Positions 8,322-16,615 of a stretch of 54,551 nt of DNA are shown here, piece after piece. Numbering within the stretch: the first letter of the stretch is position 1; every line of letters starts with the position of its first letter. The translations under genes were made by a program, and so were the position numbers. Under the pieces are notes generated by a model, which worked only from the letters and a program-made list of their open reading frames with translations, made no database searches and had not been told where the DNA came from. The stretch comes from Candidatus Limnocylindrales bacterium (GTDB lineage Bacteria > Patescibacteriota > Microgenomatia > Levybacterales > UBA12049): NCBI GenBank assembly GCA_035526025.1, contig DATLDE010000008.1, positions 1-54,551 on the forward strand, read 5' to 3'.

Positions 8322-8786
8322 ATGGACGAAACACCAGTACATACAGAAGAAACAGTAACGGTTTCATCAACTCTACCGCCACAAGATGTGGTTACTAGCA
8401 CGACAACAGTTGTTCCACCTCCCGGAGTACCAAATCCAACACAAAAAGTATTTCAAAAAAAGAAAAAGATATTTAGAGCCTATCAAATAATATGGTTTCT
8501 CCTTGCAGTGATTGAGATACTTTTGGCATTTAGGATGCTTCTAAAAGCGCTTGGTTCAGATCCCAAAAGCGGTTTTGCTACATTAATATATGCACTGAGT
8601 GATCCGCTGGCTCTTCCATTTACTGGATTGGTTGGCATCACCCAGACTCAGACGTCGACTTTTGATTGGTCGATCATAATCGCCGCTGCTGTATATGCCT
8701 TGTTAACTTTCGGAATTGTTCAAATCATCCACATGTCAAAGCCTGTAAGCAAGCAGGAAGTCGAACAAACAGTCGACGAGGCATAG
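8322..8786 (+). CDS. YggT-like membrane protein with Thr/Pro-rich N-terminus
   Basis: IEILLAFRMLLKALG...FATLIYALSDPLALPF pattern with two hydrophobic segments; starts 1 nt after the gnd stop. Confidence 0.65.
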   Translation: MDETPVHTEETVTVSSTLPPQDVVTSTTTVVPPPGVPNPTQKVFQKKKKIFRAYQIIWFLLAVIEILLAFRMLLKALGSDPKSGFATLIYALSDPLALPFTGLVGITQTQTSTFDWSIIIAAAVYALLTFGIVQIIHMSKPVSKQEVEQTVDEA

Positions 8787-8929
8787 GATTTACAAAACGG
8801 GATATAAATCATCTATGTTCCGTTCTACTCATTTAACTCCCACTTCATCACCGCTCTACAATGATAAGCAGTTTAGGAGGCAATTGTAGTAAAATCTTCA
8901 AAGCGATTAAACAGGAGAGAATTTTTTTA

Positions 8930-9493
8930 TCAAATCCTACCCCCAAGGAAACTTTCGCTATTCCAAACTCGAGCACTTTGCAATGTAAATATATTTGTTC
9001 TTGTGTCAGGTGATCCCGGTGACTGTTGATTTACTTCAAACGTGCATGCTTTGCTAACGTGTGGTTCCTTCGTTCTTCCTTTATATATCCTTGTAAGTTG
9101 ATCAGGATTTTGATGGGCGAGTGCAAACGCAATAGGGACACCAAGCTTAAGAGATGCAGAAATTAGTCTTCTTGTTTCACCATCACCTACTTTGAAGTCC
9201 AGACACGTCTCACCATTTGAGTTAGCAGCCGTTCTTATTGCAATAGGTTGCCCATATCTGCCTGTGAAGCGGCATTCTTGATCTCCCGCTTCTTCTACAT
9301 CTTCAGGTGTGTACCCAAAATGTTTTGTCAAAATAGCTTTCAACGCATCTCGACTTTCTGTTGGATTGTCCTCACCTTCACCGTCGAAAAATGGATCCTC
9401 CAATGTTTCATCCTGGGATACGCTTAATGCAAGTTGCCGAAAATTAGGTATGTCACCGTCTTTTCCAGGAGATCCTTCAATTGCTTCGTCCAT
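8930..9493 (-). CDS. Hypothetical protein
   Basis: 187-aa ORF with upstream TGGTAGTCT (-10-like) on the minus strand; no motif recognised. Confidence 0.65.
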   Translation of the reverse strand: MDEAIEGSPGKDGDIPNFRQLALSVSQDETLEDPFFDGEGEDNPTESRDALKAILTKHFGYTPEDVEEAGDQECRFTGRYGQPIAIRTAANSNGETCLDFKVGDGETRRLISASLKLGVPIAFALAHQNPDQLTRIYKGRTKEPHVSKACTFEVNQQSPGSPDTRTNIFTLQSARVWNSESFLGGRI

Positions 9494-9683
9494 ACAACTT
9501 CTAGACTACCATGCTGTTTGTTTTTGTCAATAGCAATATTGATCCTGGGGTTAGGCAGTTAATTAATTATTTAGGTGAAAAAAATTAGAAATAAGACTTT
9601 TTCAACTTTAAACTTCCTCAAGATGTAGGTATAACTATCCTGTAGTTTGAAGATCGAGATTATATGTTGTATAATTTGTCGCT

Positions 9684-10442
9684 ATGGGGACAAATGAGCA
9701 TCCTGGTAAAGGTCAGGGAGGTAGAGAAAATAATAGATTTTCAGAATCACCTACAAGTTTTGAGCTTGCTACAAATCCGCTTTTGGATGAATTCGCTGAG
9801 TTTTTGCGGGCTAAACCTAAGAATTTTAATGAAATTATTGAGCAAATTATTCATCAGGAAGCTCGTCCTCGAAATAGAGTTATTGAGCCTAATAAGGCGA
9901 GAGGAATTCTGGCGGAAGTATATACGCGTTACAGACTTATGGAATTTGCAAGGAATCGTGATATTGTGGTTGATCCAATTCCTCATTCTGCGGTAGTAGA
10001 TCACTTTATTTTCAAAAAAAGTATAGAGGGAGGGATGCGAGTACTTGATATAGATAAAATTGGTGAGCTAAAACCCGAATATCCTCAATTTGATGAATAT
10101 GATGCATTAATGGTTGCCAGTGGCTTACCGGTAGCTATAGAGGTAAAGTCGGGAACCAAAGGTAAAACAAATGGGTTTGCTTCTGCAACAAATTTGCGCA
10201 CTGTTAGTAGAAAACTAAAATACATAAAAAACTATTTCAAAACAGATAAATTTGGATACATGGCAGTTAGTTTGCCAGAAAGAGTAAATGATAGTAATAG
10301 TACAAATATAGACAAATTTAAAAAAAGAGGAGGTATTGTAGTCGCTCTTCCCATAACTTCGCCCGAATTAGATACATATGCAGGAAGATTATTATCGCAA
10401 AATGACCAATATCGCAAGTCAAAAAGTCAAATAATAAAGTGA
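9684..10442 (+). CDS. Hypothetical protein with PD-(D/E)xK nuclease-like motif
   Basis: EYDALMVASGLPVAIEVKSG resembles the D...ExK core of restriction-endonuclease-like folds; TATAAT at 9670-9675. Confidence 0.55.
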   Translation: MGTNEHPGKGQGGRENNRFSESPTSFELATNPLLDEFAEFLRAKPKNFNEIIEQIIHQEARPRNRVIEPNKARGILAEVYTRYRLMEFARNRDIVVDPIPHSAVVDHFIFKKSIEGGMRVLDIDKIGELKPEYPQFDEYDALMVASGLPVAIEVKSGTKGKTNGFASATNLRTVSRKLKYIKNYFKTDKFGYMAVSLPERVNDSNSTNIDKFKKRGGIVVALPITSPELDTYAGRLLSQNDQYRKSKSQIIK

Positions 10443-10507
10443 ATAAAATTTGACAAACCTCAAGACTCTAAGCAGAAATGTGCGCAAATTTTATCCTATA
10501 GTAGCTA

Positions 10508-10536
10508 TTGACAAATTTCAAATTATTGTTTATAAT
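10508..10536 (+). promoter_or_regulatory. Perfect-consensus sigma70 promoter of the T-box/proBAC transcript
   Basis: TTGACA (10508-10513), 17-nt spacer, TATAAT (10531-10536). Confidence 0.9.
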
Positions 10537-10550
10537 CTAATTAGTTTATA

Positions 10551-10793
10551 AAAGCGTTGAGTTTGGTTTCCCGCCAAACGAGCTGCATACGATGAGTATG
10601 ACGGAAGGACACCGTAAAAATAAATCCAAAGTGTGTCGGTAACGGAGCACTAAATAAGAAGTTTCTTTTTAGATGTTCTCCGCTGGTTGGCGGAGATTTT
10701 TGTATTAAGGGACTTAAAGCAAGGTGGTACCACGAGCGAATCCTCGTCCTTGCCTATCAGAATTGATCTGATGGGTGAAGACGAGGTTTTTTT
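10551..10793 (+). promoter_or_regulatory. T-box riboswitch leader (transcriptional), probable Pro (CCC) specifier
   Basis: T-box core AAGCAAGGTGGTACCACG (10717-10734). Antiterminator: AAGG 10721-24 / CCTT 10748-51, TGGTACC bulge, ACGAG 10732-36 / CTCGT 10743-47. Stem III TCTCCGC/GCGGAGA (10677-10696). K-turn-closed short Stem I at 10553-10584. Confidence 0.9.
10742..10793 (+). terminator. Intrinsic terminator (T-box attenuator)
   Basis: CCTCGTC (10742-48) pairs with GACGAGG (10780-86), followed by 7 T. It is mutually exclusive with the antiterminator. Confidence 0.88.
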
Positions 10794-11429
10794 ATGGCTA
10801 AAAATATGAAAAAAATAATTGTTATCAAAATAGGAAGCAGTGTGCTTATGACGAAACGCAATCAGCTTGACGAGTTTCGGATTGCTCATATTGCCAAACA
10901 GGTTAGTGCTTTGAAAGAAAAAGGCATAGGTATCGTATTGGTCATTTCTGGTGCCGTCGCATATGGATCAAATTTTATTGATTTATCCAAGAATCAAAAA
11001 CAAATCAGACAGGCTGCAGCGGGCATTGGGCAGGTGTATACAACCTGTACTTTTAACAATATATTTAATCAAAGCAAACTACAGCTGGCACAAATGTTAC
11101 TCACTAAAGATTCTTTTAACACGGATCTCAAGAGAAAAAAGATTAAGAAGCTTATCGAATTCTATGCGGAGTCCAATTTTATCACTTTTATAAATGAGAA
11201 TGATGTAATTGATCTGAACAGCTTTGGAGGTAATGATCATTTGGCTGCGGAAGTCACACGACTGCTGAATACAAAAAAACTGATAATTCTCTCGACGTGG
11301 GAGGGATCAATACATGGCGTGGGTGGTGGGCAGGCCAAGCAAGACGCCATAGCAATGCTTACAGAGAGCGATATAGAGGCGAGTATTGTTAACGGAAGAA
11401 CAAAAGATATTATTTTACAATCAATATGA
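10794..11429 (+). CDS. proB: Glutamate 5-kinase, truncated (no PUA domain, internal deletion)
   Basis: KIGSSVL, ISGAVAYG, AAAGIGQ, INEND and FGGND motifs; first gene after the T-box. The start may be ATG 10806. Confidence 0.85.
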   Translation: MAKNMKKIIVIKIGSSVLMTKRNQLDEFRIAHIAKQVSALKEKGIGIVLVISGAVAYGSNFIDLSKNQKQIRQAAAGIGQVYTTCTFNNIFNQSKLQLAQMLLTKDSFNTDLKRKKIKKLIEFYAESNFITFINENDVIDLNSFGGNDHLAAEVTRLLNTKKLIILSTWEGSIHGVGGGQAKQDAIAMLTESDIEASIVNGRTKDIILQSI

Positions 11430-12613
11430 AAAACCAAATTAATCTCAACCAAATAAAAGATGCTGCTCTTATACTTTCTCAAAAAAAAGAGAGTGATCAA
11501 AATATGTTTTTAAAAAATCTCGCGAATTCTTTAATGGACCACAAGGAGCTCATTTTTAAAGCGAACAGAAAAGATATTAGGAATGCAGAAAAAAATAATC
11601 TGTCCACTTCTATGATTCAGCGGTTGATTCTTGATGAAGATTTATTGAACGACTTAATTTTAAGACTTGGTAATTTGCAAAAATTGAAAAGTGTAACGGG
11701 TACGATTTTGGAAGAGAAGTTACTGAAAAATAAATTGATTTTAAAAAAAGTATCCGTGCCCTTGGGTGTAATCTTGGTGATTTACGAATCACGTCCTGAA
11801 GTCACGATTGATGTAGCTGCGTTATGTATTAAATCCGGAAATGCAGTGATTCTCAAAGGGGGATCTGAGGCCATCAATACAAATAGGGCGCTGCATCAAT
11901 GTGTTATTGAGGCACTGGATAAATCGAAATTATCAAAAAAGACTGTTACGTATATTGAAGTCCGCATCATGTTAAATAAATTATTAAATAGGAGTGATTA
12001 TATTGATCTGGTTATTGCGCGTGGTGGATATGGGATGGTGAAAAATGTTATGGAAAAATCAAGAATTCCTGTTTTGGCGCATTCCGCAGGAGGGGCAAGG
12101 ATCTATATAGATGAAAGCGCTGATTTATCAATTGTTGAGAAGATTATAATCAACTCAAAAACAAGTAAGCCTGCGGCGTGCAATTCACTGGACACGATCC
12201 TTATTCATCAGAAAATCGCCAAAAAAGTTTTACTTATTCTAAAAAAGACGTTAAAAAACAGTAAGGTAGGGATTGTGAACAACCAGTGGGAGCAGGAATT
12301 CCTTGATTTAAAGATTGGTATAAAAATTGTAAAAAACCTGGAGGAAGCGATCAAATTTATCAATATTTATAGTAAAAAACATTCTGAGGGCATAATTGCT
12401 CAGAACAAAGCAGTTATTAATAAGTTTAAAAATTCTATTGATATAGCGGCAGTATTCATAAATTGTTCGACACGATTTCATGATGGTTACGAATTTGGAA
12501 TGGGCGCTGAAATGGGTATTTCAACCGGAAAGCTTCATGCAAGAGGACCTGTCGGGTTAAAAGAATTAACAACGTACAAATGGGAGGTATATGGAAATGG
12601 ACAAATTAGATAA
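11426..12613 (+). CDS. proA: Gamma-glutamyl phosphate reductase
   Basis: VPLGVILVIYESRP, LKGGSEA, catalytic ACNSLDT, HSEGI and STRFHDG.EFG.GAEMGISTGKLHARGPVGL; ATGA overlap with proB. Confidence 0.96.
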   Translation: MKNQINLNQIKDAALILSQKKESDQNMFLKNLANSLMDHKELIFKANRKDIRNAEKNNLSTSMIQRLILDEDLLNDLILRLGNLQKLKSVTGTILEEKLLKNKLILKKVSVPLGVILVIYESRPEVTIDVAALCIKSGNAVILKGGSEAINTNRALHQCVIEALDKSKLSKKTVTYIEVRIMLNKLLNRSDYIDLVIARGGYGMVKNVMEKSRIPVLAHSAGGARIYIDESADLSIVEKIIINSKTSKPAACNSLDTILIHQKIAKKVLLILKKTLKNSKVGIVNNQWEQEFLDLKIGIKIVKNLEEAIKFINIYSKKHSEGIIAQNKAVINKFKNSIDIAAVFINCSTRFHDGYEFGMGAEMGISTGKLHARGPVGLKELTTYKWEVYGNGQIR

Positions 12614-13382
12614 AAAAATAGCAATAATCGGAGCCGGGCACATGGGAAAATCCTTGATGAAAGGATTAATTAATAGTGGATTTAAAAAGAATAATCTTTT
12701 TGTTTCAAATAAATCAAAAGATAATAAAAATGTTGTATTAAAAGCTGATTGGATCATACTCGCGGTTAAGCCTTCAATAATCTCAGAGGTGATCCAAGAA
12801 ATTAAAGATGGTGTTCAAAATAGATTGCTTATATCTGTTGCTGCAGCAGTAAGTATTTCAAATATTGAAAAATATGTAGGAAATAGAAATCAAAAGATAA
12901 TGAGAATTATGCCAAATATAGCAGTTGCTCATAATCAAGGTGTAATTGGTCTAATTGCAAACGAAAATGCTACCAGCACTGAAAAGCAGGAGGTAATTAG
13001 TCTATTCTCCGGATTAGGTTTAGTTGTTGATCTTAAAAAAGAGAAAGACTTGGATATGATTACTTTAATCTCTGCCTGTAGTCCTGCAATTATCGCTCAT
13101 TTTATGGAAATGTTTTCTGAGTACGGTACAACACATGGATTATCGGCAAAAGATTCAGAAAAGATTGTTCTGCAGGTGTTCAAAGGCACAGTTGAGTATC
13201 TTGAAAAATCAAATCTATCATCTTCTCAATTAAAGCAATCCGTAGCTACAAAAGGCGGAGTAACAGAAGAAATCATTAAAAGCTTGGATAACAAAAAAGT
13301 GTCTTTGAATTTTACGGAGAGTTTGGATAAGGGATATCAGAGAATAAATAAAGTTATTGAGGAGGTGAAAAAAAATGAGTAA
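12597..13382 (+). CDS. proC: Pyrroline-5-carboxylate reductase
   Basis: IAIIGAGHMG, ILAVKP, RIMPN and VATKGGVT motifs. GGAGGT at 12583-88 favours ATG 12597 over 12591. Confidence 0.93.
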   Translation: MDKLDKKIAIIGAGHMGKSLMKGLINSGFKKNNLFVSNKSKDNKNVVLKADWIILAVKPSIISEVIQEIKDGVQNRLLISVAAAVSISNIEKYVGNRNQKIMRIMPNIAVAHNQGVIGLIANENATSTEKQEVISLFSGLGLVVDLKKEKDLDMITLISACSPAIIAHFMEMFSEYGTTHGLSAKDSEKIVLQVFKGTVEYLEKSNLSSSQLKQSVATKGGVTEEIIKSLDNKKVSLNFTESLDKGYQRINKVIEEVKKNE

Positions 13383-13767
13383 AGAAGAACTTAGAACTGA
13401 AGTTGTACTGACCGGACGTGGGGTAAAAAAACTTTTAGAGCGGCGGGGTATAAGAAATGTTGAAAAGGATAAATCCGGTAAATATGTCGTGGCAACATTT
13501 ACAGGGGATGAGAGTTCTGCAGAGACTGGTTTTGGAAAACTGTCAATTGAATACAAACTTGTAAATAATACATCTCCAAATGGCAATAGGACAATTGTCA
13601 TATTTGGTGATTTGAGACAGAGGGGCCATAGAGATGTTCGTAAGGTTACTTTAAATCATGAGACAGGTGAAGGGTATCAGGAGTTTGGCAGTGGAATGTA
13701 CGTTGGGGTTAGGACCAATGCAGGAGCTGATATATTTGTTCGGGGGACAGAAAAGAGAATGGAATAA
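13375..13767 (+). CDS. Hypothetical protein translationally coupled to proC
   Basis: Overlaps the proC stop; SD GGAGGTGA (13361-68) lies 6 nt before the ATG. Confidence 0.7.
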   Translation: MSKEELRTEVVLTGRGVKKLLERRGIRNVEKDKSGKYVVATFTGDESSAETGFGKLSIEYKLVNNTSPNGNRTIVIFGDLRQRGHRDVRKVTLNHETGEGYQEFGSGMYVGVRTNAGADIFVRGTEKRME

Positions 13768-13809
13768 TAGTTACATAATTCAATATTTTAAGTTAATATT
13801 ATATAAACT

Positions 13810-14289
13810 ATGAACGATATTTATAAAGTGCTTGAGGAGCTAGGGATCATATATCAAAAATATGATCATCCTGCAGTTTTTACTGCTGAAGATGCGGATT
13901 TGCACTACTCAGGTATAGATGGGTTTAAAAGTAAAAATCTTTTTCTGAGGAATAAAAAAGGCGACAAGCACTTTCTTGTGATCGTAAAGAGTACAAAAAA
14001 GGTTGATTTAAAAAGATTGGAAGGTTTGCTGGAAGCTGACAAGCTTAGCTTCGGATCACCTGAGCGGATGATGAAATATCTCGGACTTACACCGGGATCC
14101 GTTTCGCCATTTGGTTTGATCAATGATTCCGAAAAAGTTGTCAACGTAGTAGTTGATAAAGACTTATTGGAATATAAGAAAGTTGCATTCCATCCAAATG
14201 TAAATACTGCCACACTAGTTATAGATACTGAAAATTTTAAGAAGTATTTAGAGTGGACAAAAAATAAAGTAACTTATTTAGATCTGTAA
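13810..14289 (+). CDS. YbaK/ProX-family prolyl-tRNA editing protein
   Basis: HPAVFT, KNLFLRNKKG, LSFGSPE and LTPGSVSPFGL...FHPNVNTAT motifs typical of ProXp-ala/PrdX; adjacent to proS. Confidence 0.9.
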   Translation: MNDIYKVLEELGIIYQKYDHPAVFTAEDADLHYSGIDGFKSKNLFLRNKKGDKHFLVIVKSTKKVDLKRLEGLLEADKLSFGSPERMMKYLGLTPGSVSPFGLINDSEKVVNVVVDKDLLEYKKVAFHPNVNTATLVIDTENFKKYLEWTKNKVTYLDL

Positions 14290-14318
14290 TGTATCATATA
14301 CTAACTTATGATACATTA
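14287..14318. promoter_or_regulatory. Perfect 12-8-12 inverted repeat (operator or dif-like recombinase site)
   Basis: TAATGTATCATA (14287-98), TACTAACT, TATGATACATTA (14307-18). The repeat is seen directly; the function is inferred. Confidence 0.5.
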
Positions 14319-14369
14319 GGAAAATGAATTGTTATAGCAGAGGCTGAATGTTATACTAACTATGTTGAT

Positions 14370-16052
14370 ATGAAATATTCAAAATTATTTGGAAAAACAA
14401 TTAAAGATATGCCAAAGGATGCGACACTTGCGTCTCACAAACTGCTTTATCAGGGTGGATTTATACGTGAGAGTACCGCAGGCAGGTATTATTTTCTTCC
14501 TCTCGGACAAAAAGTCCAGCAGAAAATTATCAAAATAGTTAAAGAAGAAATGGATAGAGCAGATGCGCAGGAGATTGTTGCGCCAATTCTTCACCCTCTT
14601 TATCTTTGGCAGGAAACAAATCGTGATAAAGCGGATTTTGGCCTACTTAAGATAAGAGATAGGCGAGACATGGATTTTGTTTTGGGGGGGACAGCTGAAG
14701 AGATGATGGTAGATTTGGTTCGTAAGTTTCAGATAAGCTACAAAGATCTGCCATTTCAGGTTTATCAATTTGCATCAAAATTCAGGGATGAGCTTCGCGC
14801 CCGAGGAGGACTTCTCAGAGTACGAGAGTTCATCATGAAAGATGGATATTCATTCCACGCTGATGAAGAAGATTTTAAAAAAGAATACAAAAAAATGGCA
14901 AATACCTATTCAAAAATATTTGAAAGAGTAGGAATCGACACTTTTATGGTGGCGGCTGACAATGGGGATATCGGTGGAGAATATGCTCATGAGTTTCAGG
15001 TTAAATCAGATGCCGGAGAAGACACAATTTTCTACGTACCTTCAAAAAAATTATATTTTAATAAAGAAATTGCCCCAACAAAAGCATTGCCTTTTGATCA
15101 GAAGAATGAAGAGCAAAAAACGATGGAAGAGGTTGAAGGAAAAGGAATAATAGGAGTTGAAGCACTCGCCAAATTTCTAAACATTCCTGTGGAGGCAACA
15201 ACGAAGACAATTCTATTTGAAACGGAAAAAGGGCAAATAATTGCAGCTGCGCTTCGTGGAGAATTTGATATAGATGAAACAAAGCTTAAAAGAATTATAA
15301 AGTGTCAAAGCCTTACGCTTATAGCTCCTGAAAAAATTAAAGAACTGACAGGGGCCGAAGTGGGATATGCAGGAATTATCAATCTTCCAAAAGAAGTGAA
15401 AATATTTATGGATGATTCCATGGAAGGTAGAGTTAATTTTGAAATGGGCGCCAACAGAACCAATTTTCATTCTATAAATATAAATTTTGGTCGTGATTTG
15501 CCACTTCCTGAAAAGTTCTATGATTTTAAAGAAACGCGTGTTGGGGACTTATATCCGGAAACTGGAGAGCCATATGAAACGTTCAGAGGGATAGAAGTTG
15601 GAAATATCTTTCAGCTTGGATATCACTATTCTAAAAAAATGGACAAAGCGACTTTTATGGATAAAGACGGAAAAGAAACGCCTTATTACATGGGTTGTTA
15701 TGGAATTGGAATAGGTAGAACTCTTGGAGCGATAGTTGAATCAAGTCATGATGAAAGAGGAATTATCTGGCCTAAGTCTGTTTCGCCTTATGATGTCCAT
15801 CTTATTTCAATCAAAAGCAATGACAAAGCAGAGGAAATTTATAACAAATTGCAAGATGCTGGGGTAGAAGTGCTTTACGATGATAGGGAAGACATATCGG
15901 CTGGAAATCAATTCGCAGATGCTGATCTGATCGGAATTCCAGTTCGGCTAGTGGTAAGTGCCAAATCAGGAGATAAGATCGAGTGGAAAGAGAGAGCGAG
16001 TAAAGAAGCAAAGCTGTTAAGTTTTGATGAAGTCTTGAAGTTTTTAAAGTAA
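14370..16052 (+). CDS. proS: Proline--tRNA ligase (bacterial type with INS editing domain)
   Basis: FRDELRARGGLLRVREFIMKDGYSF, GIEVGNIFQLG and MGCYGIGIGR motifs, YbaK-like insertion and anticodon-binding C-terminal domain. Confidence 0.98.
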   Translation: MKYSKLFGKTIKDMPKDATLASHKLLYQGGFIRESTAGRYYFLPLGQKVQQKIIKIVKEEMDRADAQEIVAPILHPLYLWQETNRDKADFGLLKIRDRRDMDFVLGGTAEEMMVDLVRKFQISYKDLPFQVYQFASKFRDELRARGGLLRVREFIMKDGYSFHADEEDFKKEYKKMANTYSKIFERVGIDTFMVAADNGDIGGEYAHEFQVKSDAGEDTIFYVPSKKLYFNKEIAPTKALPFDQKNEEQKTMEEVEGKGIIGVEALAKFLNIPVEATTKTILFETEKGQIIAAALRGEFDIDETKLKRIIKCQSLTLIAPEKIKELTGAEVGYAGIINLPKEVKIFMDDSMEGRVNFEMGANRTNFHSININFGRDLPLPEKFYDFKETRVGDLYPETGEPYETFRGIEVGNIFQLGYHYSKKMDKATFMDKDGKETPYYMGCYGIGIGRTLGAIVESSHDERGIIWPKSVSPYDVHLISIKSNDKAEEIYNKLQDAGVEVLYDDREDISAGNQFADADLIGIPVRLVVSAKSGDKIEWKERASKEAKLLSFDEVLKFLK

Positions 16053-16083
16053 AAATATAAACTTAGGTTCGAGCTTGTAATCT

Positions 16084-16329
16084 TTAATTATTTTTCTTCT
16101 TCTTATGCTTTTTTCTGTGTTCCTCTCTCTGTCTTTCTAATCTAGCTGCAGCTGTTTCTCTTGTTGGAGATTTATCTTTTCTCGCAGCATCCCTCATCCT
16201 TTGCTCCTTTGACTTCTTTTTTTCCGCAGCAAAGACAATCATAGTAAGTGGTAAGCTAATCGCTAAATCAAAATAGCTTATTCGTCTTCGATCTGCACTG
16301 GGATTTGGTCTTTCAATTTCTCTTCGCAT
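16084..16329 (-). CDS. Small basic hypothetical protein with one hydrophobic segment
   Basis: ORF MRREIERPN...KKHKKKKNN convergent with proS; ATG 16329 is preferred. Confidence 0.45.
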   Translation of the reverse strand: MRREIERPNPSADRRRISYFDLAISLPLTMIVFAAEKKKSKEQRMRDAARKDKSPTRETAAARLERQREEHRKKHKKKKNN

Positions 16330-16396
16330 AATTTCAAAATAATTTAATCTCAAAAATAGAATTAGTTTTAATACCGGGATATAGAAGATCAATAAA

Positions 16397-16615
16397 TCAA
16401 GATTTTCTGAGTCCTGGCCGTCTCAGTGGAGGAGGGGCATCTCCAGCAGGTCTTCCGCTCTTTAGTCTTTTTCTAAAAGCTTCTGTAAGTTTGATTGTAT
16501 TTTCTGATGGGGGATGTCCATCAAATCTTTCACTTCCCGCGTCTCTATTTGCCCACCTATTTGGCGGATTATTTATTCTGAAATCATGTCCATCGTGTCC
16601 ATGTCTATCTTTCAT
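16397..16615 (-). CDS. Small hypothetical protein (Arg/Pro-rich)
   Basis: Extended -10 TGCTATAAT (16632-16624, minus) lies 8 nt before ATG 16615. Confidence 0.5.
   Translation of the reverse strand: MKDRHGHDGHDFRINNPPNRWANRDAGSERFDGHPPSENTIKLTEAFRKRLKSGRPAGDAPPPLRRPGLRKS

Follow-up and report, generated by a model that had tools for sequence, protein, structure and literature searches.

T-box control of proBA is reportedly classic in Bacillus, where the proBA and proI leaders (class I, transcriptional, RF00230) place a tRNA-Pro-specific T-box before anabolic proline genes. The Bacillus leader used here for comparison, a T-box upstream of proB-proA in Bacillus sp. FJAT-27251 (outgroup locus L112:4172-4386), scores 85.8 bits and has a long Stem I with an AGAGA bulge, a distal loop and the specifier in an internal loop. 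The ultrashort-Stem-I T-boxes of actinobacterial ileS genes (M. tuberculosis, M. smegmatis; Sherwood et al. 2015; PDB 6UFG) control translation by Shine-Dalgarno sequestration, according to a review (PMC7583486) that also states that transcriptional T-boxes generally require a long Stem I. Here, we describe a proline operon whose leader shares features with both.

The operon has the gene order proB-proA-proC-orf130-ProXp-ala-proS, downstream of a promoter and a T-box leader, with overlaps or short gaps at the junctions (Table 1). Promoter, T-box, proB-proA-proC overlaps, a coupled orphan, an editing gene and proS with an INS domain had been listed in the original prediction, and each was found where it had been placed. 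The sigma-70-type promoter is the only 12/12 match between positions 8700 and 16500; it is not conserved in G174, where similarity begins only at the leader. A simple scan found no terminator-like site within 10800-16052. A hairpin after the proX stop precedes a second promoter-like element, possibly a basal proS promoter; in the closest congener, G002, TGnTATACT stands about as far from the proS ATG. Transcription of the operon from the consensus promoter, gated by a minimal proline T-box, is probable, under a joint estimate that covers the whole of our preferred explanation.

Table 1. Features of the proline locus; coordinates refer to the window, the whole 54.5-kb contig analysed.
Feature	Coordinates	Strand	Basis or remark
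Left part of segment specific to the genome studied	8786-10507		contains orf187 and orf252
orf187	8930-9493	-	in the specific segment
orf252	9684-10442	+	in the specific segment
Sigma-70-type promoter, TTGACA-17-TATAAT	10508-10536	+	12/12 consensus matches
Predicted minimal proline T-box leader, whole element	10548-10793	+	RF00230 match, fold
Ultrashort Stem I, GUUUGG/CCAAAC, 7-nt apical loop UUUCCCG	10561-10579	+	26-leader comparison
Stem II	10586-10600	+	96% paired, 5/5 pairs compensatory
Stem IIA	10601-10615	+	91% paired
Pseudoknot, UCC with loop GGA	10625-10627 with 10607-10609	+	complementarity across leaders
Small conserved hairpin, GUGUGUCG-GUAA-CGGAGCAC, GNRA-type loop	10631-10650	+	invariant GTGTCG columns
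Extended Stem III	10659-10715	+	tip 10677-10696 plus U-run terminator-like
T-box sequence, antiterminator, competing terminator	10718-10793	+	Rfam alignment of T-box core
UGGU bulge	10725-10728	+	within T-box sequence
Terminator arms, then U7	10742-10748 and 10780-10786, then 10787-10793	+	fold
proB, predicted mini glutamate 5-kinase	10794-11429	+	PF00696 (AA_kinase), 83 bits
proA, predicted glutamate-5-semialdehyde dehydrogenase	11426-12613	+	NF001221, 449.7 bits > 289
proC, predicted pyrroline-5-carboxylate reductase	12591-13382	+	PF14748, PF03807
orf130, near-orphan	13375-13767	+	8-nt overlap with proC, translationally coupled
ProXp-ala-like free-standing tRNA-editing protein	13810-14289	+	PF04073 (tRNA_edit), 96 bits
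Candidate basal proS promoter, TTGTTA-17-TATACT with TG	14329-14357	+	9/12 matches plus TG
proS, bacterial-type prolyl-tRNA synthetase	14370-16052	+	NF006625, 618 bits > 558

The leader, the sole T-box in the genome, matches RF00230 at 10548-10754 with E 1.3e-8. The T-box that had been predicted is thus real, albeit in minimal form: at 44.6 bits it is missed by the Rfam gathering threshold of 93 bits, because Stem I has shrunk (from about 76 to 9 model-unaligned bases). The remaining hairpin has 6 bp and shows the proline codon CCC at 10570-10572, followed by a purine (G10573). Its apical loop reads N-N-U-C-C-Y-R in 26/26 related leaders, in which the helix is 100% paired and has changes on both sides in five of six pairs. 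Across the leader helices, 96.4% of cells are paired versus 26-37% in slid controls, and 11/15 pairs are compensatory, a level reached in none of 500 shuffles. The pseudoknot partners covary as well (GGAU/AUCC, GAGCU/AGUUC, GUC/GAC, GUUC/GAAC). The GNRA-type hairpin forms in the computed fold; a similar hairpin occurs in other family T-boxes, including one with a long Stem I in L006. The Stem III tip is the only terminator-like site flagged by the simple scan, and is the end of a longer helix in the full fold (-83.4 kcal/mol, z -5.5); a hairpin resembling this tip, with a T-run, is present in 4/7 leaders of alignment A1. The terminator itself folds at -32.8 kcal/mol (z -4.97), and its 3' arm contains GAGG (10783-10786), positioned as the proB Shine-Dalgarno sequence. 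The genome encodes tRNA-Pro(GGG) and tRNA-Pro(UGG), both with discriminator A73, matched by the U of UGGU.

As in Bacillus, a T-box core, a UGGN bulge, an antiterminator/terminator with a U-run and a proline codon followed by a purine stand before anabolic proline genes; in contrast to Bacillus, the codon lies in the apical loop of a 6-bp Stem I, and the operon adds proC, the orphan, ProXp-ala and proS. Like the actinobacterial ileS T-boxes described in PMC7583486, the leader presents its specifier at the tip of a short Stem I, within the apical loop, lacks the elbow-binding double T-loop platform, and has a conserved Stem II and IIA/B pseudoknot. Unlike them, it ends in a strong hairpin with U7 and is a predicted tRNA-Pro sensor, placed before biosynthetic genes and proS in a CPR host.

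We propose that the anticodon of uncharged tRNA-Pro(GGG) would pair with CCC in the Stem I loop, assisted by Stem II and the IIA/B pseudoknot, while its free 3' end would pair with the UGGU bulge, stabilising the antiterminator and so blocking the terminator. The terminator would also mask the proB ribosome-binding site. When charged tRNA-Pro runs short, the operon would thus supply proline from glutamate, clear Ala-tRNA(Pro) and provide more ProRS. We infer this tRNA response, and the contributions of termination and translational control, from the leader architecture. The rule on long Stem I given in the review makes termination control uncertain, and the leader may act mainly on translation; with the Shine-Dalgarno sequence inside the terminator arm, both modes are possible.

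ProB (211 aa; 205-211 aa in CPR homologs) lacks the PUA domain and, through an internal deletion, about 40 kinase-domain residues. It scores 120.8 bits against TIGR01027 (cut-off 186), covering profile positions 2-200 of 363, and aligns to residues 13-182 of PDB 4Q1T and weakly to 209-252, including the GGG-x-x-K stretch. It is a putative glutamate 5-kinase. The proA start overlaps proB by 4 nt and proC overlaps proA by 23 nt; ProC falls slightly below the TIGR00112 cut-off (186.4 versus 196.75 bits). The enzymatic activities of the operon products are presumed from such family matches. The orphan status of orf130 was borne out: it has no Pfam or NCBIfam match and a single homolog (74% identical, 127 aa) in a search of 5.8 billion proteins. 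Its AF2 model is mostly β-strand (mean pLDDT 56), and a structure search of the atlas returned no usable match.

The 159-aa editing protein, previously labelled "ProX/YbaK", retains only the first half of that name. Its best solved-structure relatives, with nearly full-length matches, are ProXp-ala of Caulobacter (5VXB, E 1.2e-26) and the Agrobacterium homologs 1VKI and 1VJF (all at E ~1e-26). A YbaK identity was rejected (1DBU, E 0.097; TIGR00011, 27.6 bits versus 153). The product is therefore a predicted Ala-tRNA(Pro) deacylase. The gene occurs in 8/194 family genomes (E<=1e-50) and adjoins proS only here. Unlike in the ProXp-ala systems compared, it lies directly upstream of a ProRS already carrying a cis INS domain (tRNA_edit at residues 263-370, as expected), so the two editing activities look redundant. 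ProS is orthologous to that of G002 (84% protein identity), DNA identity is uniform at 71-84% with no mosaic, and the order proS-d145-d297-d108 is kept in G002, G003, G004, G019 and G016.

The host (G000; 1.18 Mb, 91% complete) is supported as a CPR, Microgenomates-type genome, as anticipated: all 10 taxon names given among the best 120 ProA homologs (55-100% identical) are CPR, those of close homologs being Patescibacteria, Roizmanbacteria, Gottesmanbacteria or Paceibacterota. It looks otherwise auxotrophic, again as anticipated, since searches for glutamate dehydrogenase, argininosuccinate synthase, glutamine synthetase and ornithine cyclodeaminase found no match at this completeness. The AT-richness noted by eye for proBAC, however, lies within genome noise (GC 0.347 versus a mean of 0.371, z -0.83, at the 18th percentile of genome windows), and by tetranucleotide distance the region does not stand out. 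Such host-like composition is compatible with an old acquisition or one from a related donor and, to the same degree, with vertical descent.

ProA was found in 3/41 relatives, 0/4 congeners, 10/194 family genomes (E<1e-60) and 27/401 phylum genomes (E<=1e-30), counts that MAG contamination may blur (G016, at 5% contamination, has two proBAC copies). Judged by this sequence survey, the pro module is accessory. T-boxes, in contrast, occur in 16/24 family genomes, where they regulate proS, hisG, argH, argG and trpS, and in 51/151 sampled phylum genomes; congener T-boxes lie upstream of proS. By this distribution, T-boxes are native to the lineage. The 26 proline leaders compared are followed by proB (10), ocd (5), a tRNA_bind gene (2), proS directly (3), proC (1), an AA-kinase gene (1), an MNT/HepT pair (1) or unfamiliar ORFs (3). 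As part of the same jointly weighted explanation, the proS locus is likely a slot whose cargo varies in relatives: ocd, proC, a tRNA-binding gene, a toxin-antitoxin pair, or nothing.

Homology to G002 stops at 8785 and resumes at 14368, leaving 5.6 kb specific to the genome studied versus 1.1 kb in G002, with breakpoints at gene boundaries (the up154 stop on the left, a point 2 nt ahead of the proS ATG on the right). G002, G003 and G004 retain up154, a T-box and proS-d145-d297-d108 without proBAC. Within the specific segment, orf187 and orf252 have no Pfam or NCBIfam match. G003 encodes, in the equivalent place, a protein 31% identical to orf252, so 8786-10507 may not belong to the acquired module and may instead be a variable resident stretch. 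Vertical inheritance of an ancestral T-box-proBAC-(x)-proS locus, lost from most relatives including all four congeners, would accommodate the T-box-proB-proA-proC-...-proS-d145-d297-d108 order that G019, a member of another genus, has at this site, and the proBAC-proS and proC-proS adjacencies in G135, G138 and G109 (proBAC-proS likewise at this site), as well as the host-like composition; CPR genomes are, moreover, known for gene loss. We nevertheless consider it unlikely. Had proBAC merely been deleted, a proB-type leader should have stayed behind, yet the leaders of the four congeners have another loop (CAUCCUA or CUUCCUA) and are only 55-63% identical to that of the genome studied, which shares 96% with G174 and 81-83% with other proB leaders. 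The scarcity of ProA in the family would require very many losses. Within the family, ProA falls into two subclades (SH-aLRT 100 for both), of which one is mixed with sequences from other families; the ProA studied belongs to the mixed one, apart from G019, G135, G138 and G109. A single family clade was rejected (delta lnL 220, p-AU 5e-40) for a group set by external family code but tested after the tree was viewed. These data support lateral exchange of ProA inside CPR. Most likely, then, the pro module was acquired laterally, as the original prediction held, upstream of a vertically inherited proS; we infer the direction of transfer from the same comparisons.

The source is another matter. 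A Firmicutes-type T-box pro operon moved into a CPR genome with its foreign regulation kept, as had been suggested, would have a counterpart in the Bacillus sp. locus, but is contradicted on several sides and very improbable. In a 'quick' tree with SH-aLRT as its only support, ProA falls in a CPR-only clade of 32 rows (SH-aLRT 97) with Firmicutes across that split; it is 56-86% identical to CPR sequences (76-86% to the closest, P0006-P0008) versus 37-44% to Firmicutes and other non-CPR ones, and ProB is 53-66% identical within the CPR family versus at most 36% to non-CPR loci. The full-length Stem I of the Bacillus leader, the native T-boxes and the absence of a compositional anomaly likewise speak against it. 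Misassembly or misbinning of 8.8-14.4 kb from another organism is conceivable for a MAG-derived segment missing from four congeners, but we give it hardly any credence: the junctions sit exactly at gene boundaries, synteny is kept to the left and right of the segment on a single contig, its GC and tetranucleotide profiles agree with those of the genome, comparable gene arrangements emerged from the separate assemblies of G019, G135, G138 and G109, and the contamination estimate is 0.58%. As for function, proline is a common osmolyte, and the soil habitat given for sequencing runs containing the stretch would suit osmoprotection, one of two possible roles named earlier. No osmotic-type signal was identified, however, and the predicted tRNA-Pro-charging gate follows a translational-supply logic, as does a transcript shared with an Ala-tRNA(Pro) editing gene and proS. 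The T-box-controlled proBA/proI route of B. subtilis serves anabolism, and its osmoadaptive route is under other control. Predicted control by tRNA-Pro charging points to anabolic supply, and we regard osmoprotection as improbable.

The explanation we favour, and hold to be probable as a whole, is a T-box-gated pro cassette of CPR origin placed before a vertical proS. The leader-proBAC-orf130-ProXp-ala cassette would be accessory cargo that replaced the resident proS leader in this lineage, whereas proS and its flanks would descend vertically. The locus would thus represent a complete operon for proline synthesis, proofreading and charging in an ultra-small CPR bacterium from soil, predicted to sense proline tRNA and built from genes of a CPR-specific type.

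The promoter, T-box leader, proB-proA-proC, orphan, editing gene and proS of the original prediction were all confirmed at the expected positions in contig C8 of G000, the genome of the window (1.18 Mb, 18 contigs; ~91% complete, 0.58% contaminated). Junctions are overlapping or short throughout the six-gene block from proB to proS. Because a simple scan detected no terminator-like site inside the coding block and the gene after proS lies on the opposite strand, a single transcription unit spanning promoter, leader and six genes would be the simplest reading. The sequencing runs listed for this stretch included none of RNA. In the interval before proS (14290-14369), and at its counterpart in the closest congener, G002 (L027:6984-7089), the gene upstream is followed by a hairpin, and a TGnTATACT motif stands ~10-12 nt before the proS ATG, with no obvious Shine-Dalgarno sequence ahead of proS in either genome. 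This weak TG-extended -10 element may serve as a basal proS promoter, and the basal transcript may be near-leaderless.

Features of the pro-proS block and PF01588 genes at related loci
Feature	Position	Strand	Remarks
Promoter TTGACA-17-TATAAT	10508-10536	+	sole 12/12 site within 8700-16500
T-box leader	10548-10793	+	
proB	10794-11429	+	211-aa mini form
proA	11426-12613	+	
proC	12591-13382	+	
orf130	13375-13767	+	
tRNA_edit gene (ProXp-ala-like)	13810-14289	+	159-aa product
proS	14370-16052	+	INS-bearing ProRS
PF01588 gene, G018	L016:1644-2003		
PF01588 gene, G028	L014:1712-2065		
PF01588 gene, G019	L031:5385-5759	-	between proC and proS

ProA exceeded both equivalog cut-offs (NF001221, 449.7 > 289; TIGR00407, 401.1 > 317.45), as did ProS that of NF006625 (618.1 > 558), and the INS domain of ProRS was recognized by PF04073 at residues 263-370 (75 bits). 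ProC scored 186.4 against a TIGR00112 cut-off of 196.75, with coverage of positions 1-261 of 263 and both Pfam domains passing. ProB fell far below the TIGR01027 cut-off (120.8 < 186; profile positions 2-200 of 363 covered) because it is a mini form that lacks the PUA domain and, when set against solved glutamate 5-kinases (PDB 4Q1T), shows an internal gap. Its C-terminal GGG-x-x-K stretch is kept, and given that a 205-211-aa form is conserved beside proA in CPR, the mini protein probably works like ProB. CPR ProB proteins (the window copy and those of L030, L031 and L034) are ~40 residues shorter than 2AKO (251 aa), the shortest solved ProB matched.

A scan of the whole window at the Rfam gathering level, which for the T-box family RF00230 is 93 bits, returned no match. 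At an E-value threshold, the leader was recovered with E 1.3e-8 and 44.6 bits, under the gathering cut-off, and AAGGUGGUACCACGAG aligned to the RF00230 core at posterior probability '*'. The long Stem I of class I, with its AG bulge, distal loop and tRNA-elbow platform, is not present: ~76 Stem I model positions are replaced by 9 bases, and Stem I is a 6-bp hairpin (GUUUGG/CCAAAC) closed by the 7-nt loop UUUCCCG. This loop displays the specifier CCC followed by the purine G, matching the downstream pro genes, and the U of the UGGU bulge complements discriminator A73 of both tRNA-Pro genes of G000 (anticodons GGG and UGG). The aragorn set for this genome comprises 41 predicted tRNAs, including the unusual calls tRNA-Ser with anticodon ACT and tRNA-Ile with anticodon TAT.

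A low bit score was not taken as a sign of architecture. The outgroup Bacillus proBA leader, which has a complete long Stem I where that of G000 is ultrashort, also scored under 93 bits (85.8), and a gathering-level scan of 10 outgroup proBA loci yielded no match; a score below the cut-off is therefore by itself no proof of atypical architecture, which we judged from the RF00230 alignment of the Bacillus leader instead. With the ultrashort-Stem-I (class II) T-boxes, as defined in PMC7583486, the leader shares an apical-loop specifier, a Stem II and a IIA/B pseudoknot. For translational control, class II has a Shine-Dalgarno sequestrator without a terminator; the off-state helix of the G000 leader (-32.8 kcal/mol, z -4.97) holds GAGG but is followed by U7, like a terminator, and either mode may operate. 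Terminator and antiterminator share CCUCGUC. Within the 3' arm GACGAGG, GAGG stands 7 nt ahead of the proB ATG, and this start codon comes directly after the U-run. Here, the short form is joined to a platform that resembles a terminator and also masks the ribosome-binding site.

Two further hairpins were noted in the leader. At 10631-10650, between the F-box region and Stem III, lies a conserved small hairpin (GUGUGUCG, a GNRA-like loop and CGGAGCA) of a type found in many T-boxes of the family (L006, L012, L011) whatever the length of Stem I, and treated as an insertion in the Rfam model. The tip of Stem III (10677-10705) is a GC-rich hairpin with a U-run, terminator- or pause-like and upstream of the T-box sequence, with an equivalent in four of the seven leaders of alignment A1.

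From relatives, we assembled 26 non-redundant leaders, chosen by T-box core, NNTCCYR-loop hairpin and T-run. Their loops read UUUCCCG, UUUCCUG, CAUCCUA, CUUCCUA or UAUCCCG. Since the set was selected by the U-C-C-Y-R pattern, which all 26 Pro-type leaders carry, independent evidence comes instead from the agreement of the codon with the pro genes downstream. In the alignment of the 5' halves, the proposed Stems I, II and IIA were paired in 96.4% of cells, compared with 26-37% when partners were slid. Both partners vary in 11 of the 15 pairs, and none of 500 shuffles reached this level. The Stem IIA loop stays complementary to a segment 4-10 nt downstream through differing sequences, the signature of the IIA/B pseudoknot. 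Corresponding loops present His CAC ahead of hisG and Arg CGC ahead of argH. Taken together, core, covariation, pseudoknot and tRNA match mark the leader as a genuine tRNA-Pro T-box of the ultrashort-Stem-I kind.

The editing gene had been predicted to encode ProX/YbaK. Its product is closest to ProXp-ala (PDB 5VXB, E 1.2e-26, residues 3-147; Agrobacterium homologs, E ~1e-26), and the YbaK identity was rejected (TIGR00011, 27.6 < 153.25; PDB YbaK entries, E 0.097 and 0.19). Clearing of Ala-tRNA(Pro) is normally done by the INS domain. The closeness to ProXp-ala, beside a ProRS that bears INS, suggests that the protein duplicates this function in trans. ProXp-ala homologs (E<=1e-50) occur in 8 of 194 family genomes. 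Apart from G000, these genomes carry the gene at a site distinct from that of proS, and the ProRS of each of the seven is of the INS type. The near-orphan orf130 has one homolog (74% identity) in a large protein search. It matched no Pfam or NCBIfam family and, by features, no usable atlas neighbour, its structure neighbours (TM <=0.56) are without family, and its AF2 model is of low confidence (pLDDT 56).

The congeners G002, G003 and G004 share the order up154 (the left flank gene), Pro T-box, proS and the downstream genes d145, d297 and d108, without proBAC. DNA homology between G000 and G002 (ProS 84% and d297 86% identical) ends at 8785, the up154 stop, and picks up again at 14368, only 2 nt short of the proS ATG; the intervening 5,582 bp correspond to ~1.08 kb in G002, consisting of a leader and an ORF without family. 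The ORFs that separate the Pro leader from proS in G002 (L027:6402-6983) and G003 (L028:7155-7403, minus strand) have a C-terminal motif, VxYPLGDxRFLCM, in common, and neither matches a Pfam or NCBIfam family. Within proS, DNA identity to G002 is uniformly 71-84%, and a search for a mosaic or recombination footprint in this gene found none. The left limit of the acquired piece, somewhere within 8786-10507, is uncertain, because an ORF 31% identical to orf252, one of two family-less ORFs there, occupies the equivalent place in G003.

The 5' 110 nt of the G000 leader are 96% identical to the proB leader of G174, a member of the same family, and 81-83% identical to proB leaders of G019, G546, G016 and a metagenome contig, as against 55-63% to the leaders of congeners G001-G004. 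Similarity to G174 starts abruptly at the leader and runs into proB at lower identity, with unrelated promoters. This resemblance to proB leaders rather than to those of the congeners suggests that leader and proBAC moved together and that the resident proS leader was displaced; plain deletion in the congeners would not produce such a pattern of identities. A simple gain is in turn counted against by the recurrence of proBAC directly upstream of proS in G019 (with the same flanks), G135, G138 and G109, which belong to the other ProA subclade. In genome G016, small contigs (C42, C93, C134; L030, L033, L005) hold two diverged copies of T-box-proBAC, with ProA 57% and 59% identical to that of G000; the two do not pair first in the ProA tree, and one groups with a Roizmanbacteria protein. 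Given ~5% contamination, this double copy may reflect strain or bin mixing.

ProA was found in 3 of the 41 nearest genomes and in none of the four congeners; among 194 family genomes, 15 had matches at E<=0.001 (10 true ProA at E<1e-60 and five weak matches to other dehydrogenases), and in an even phylum sample 27 of 401 genomes had matches at E<=1e-30. In a quick IQ-TREE reconstruction of 82 rows with SH-aLRT support only, G000 ProA falls within a 32-row clade (support 97) in which every named or coded member is CPR and 8 rows are unnamed; Firmicutes and all other phyla lie on the opposite side of this split. The family's sequences form two subclades with support 100 each, one comprising G019, G135, G138, G109, G077, G137 and G193, the other joining G000, G016 and G174 to Roizman- and Gottesmanbacteria and to two other-family genomes. 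Forcing the 11 family rows into one clade cost 220 log-likelihood units (p-AU 5e-40), the group being set by the external family code, though tested after the tree was seen. A metagenome scan returned six loci, none giving the context of the closest ProA homologs (P0006-P0008, 76-86% identical).

Consistent with the original prediction, the module beside proS is accessory, regulated and probably laterally acquired. The proposed Firmicutes-like source proved wrong: against a named outgroup set, mostly non-CPR loci, ProA identity was 37-44% among the matches listed, and ProB identity was at most 36% at non-CPR loci versus 53-66% within the family. Nor did the suspected compositional anomaly of proBAC give a signal (GC 0.347, genome mean 0.371, z -0.83; ordinary tetranucleotide distance). 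The T-box itself is not foreign either: RF00230 matched 16 of the 24 family genomes scanned (E<=0.01) and 51 of 151 genomes sampled across the phylum (E<=0.001), five of the 151 above the Rfam cut-off.

The assumption of a CPR host that is largely auxotrophic stands. The ten taxon names given among the best 120 ProA homologs (55-100% identical) are all CPR (Patescibacteria group, Roizmanbacteria, Gottesmanbacteria, Paceibacterota), and the ProA of G174 has the same sequence as a protein named 'Patescibacteria group bacterium'. In G000, no match was obtained for glutamate dehydrogenase, glutamine synthetase, argininosuccinate synthase or ornithine cyclodeaminase, which at 91% completeness means not found rather than absent; the first three were found in 14 of 14 control genomes.

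Cargo behind the Pro leader varies. The first gene after the 26 leaders is proB in 10 cases, ornithine cyclodeaminase (ocd) in 5 (Pfam confirmed those of G001, G110 and G007, while N-terminal similarity identified those of G132 and G131), proS in 3, a tRNA-binding PF01588 protein in 2, proC alone, an AA-kinase and an MNT/HepT pair in one each, and an ORF without assignment in 3. Within the single genus g1, G000 carries proBAC, orf130 and the ProXp-ala-like gene, G001 ocd and an INS-less ProRS, G002 and G003 an ORF without family, and G004 nothing. In three genomes, a gene for the small PF01588 protein (CsaA/Trbp111-like, 117-124 aa) separates proS from the Pro T-box or from proC; its position is filled in G000 by orf130 and the ProXp-ala-like gene. 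In G133, an MNT-type nucleotidyltransferase and a HepT-like RNase occupy the interval between the Pro T-box and proS (L150:865-1504), a location that would place this toxin-antitoxin pair under tRNA-Pro control.

The ProRS itself occurs in several forms in the family (L017-L022, L138-L164): an INS type 63-84% identical to that of G000, a second INS type at 52-57%, and a third, short form found in ~70 genomes as open frames of ~390-475 aa matching residues 1-238 and 387-559 only, with INS absence Pfam-verified for G001 alone. As g1 and g63 each hold more than one form, proS itself seems to have been exchanged. Other T-boxes of the family stand ahead of hisG, argH (two genomes), argG and trpS (L012, G007; L015, G003; L007, G012; L009, G021; L011, G016), and the hisG leader and one argH leader carry their codons in short Stem I loops (AGU-codon-GAU). 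The T-boxes before hisG, argH and argG suggest that a lineage thought auxotrophic has several T-box-gated biosynthetic genes.

We tentatively propose, with somewhat less than even confidence, that in CPR Microgenomates the Pro T-box/proS locus is a plug-in site at which cassettes of leader and cargo pass from one lineage to another ahead of a resident proS. The cargo would comprise alternative routes to proline (proBAC from glutamate, ocd from ornithine, or proC alone) and factors for tRNA-Pro quality control, and the minimal leader, with its apical-loop codon and lacking a tRNA-elbow platform, would act as a true transcription-termination switch. If true, this would contradict the rule that terminator-type T-boxes need a long Stem I. 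The finding combines two known kinds, a T-box-controlled pro operon and an ultrashort-Stem-I T-box, in a new form. The searchable literature yielded no paper on CPR T-boxes; the supplementary tables of TBDB may hold CPR entries.

With ~245 nt in all and a Stem I of 19 nt, this compact T-box joins an ultrashort Stem I to a terminator and so makes the need for tRNA-elbow contacts in termination control open to direct testing. Many ProRS of the family lack INS; against this background, the ProXp-ala-like gene and the INS-bearing ProRS next to it offer a natural system for asking to what extent tRNA-Pro requires proofreading. The reflex of equating T-boxes with Firmicutes is also corrected, as one third of the sampled phylum genomes have matches, almost all of them below the annotation threshold. 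For the organisms themselves, these observations indicate that a lineage taken to be largely auxotrophic retains a small set of amino-acid modules that are exchangeable and under tight, native regulation.
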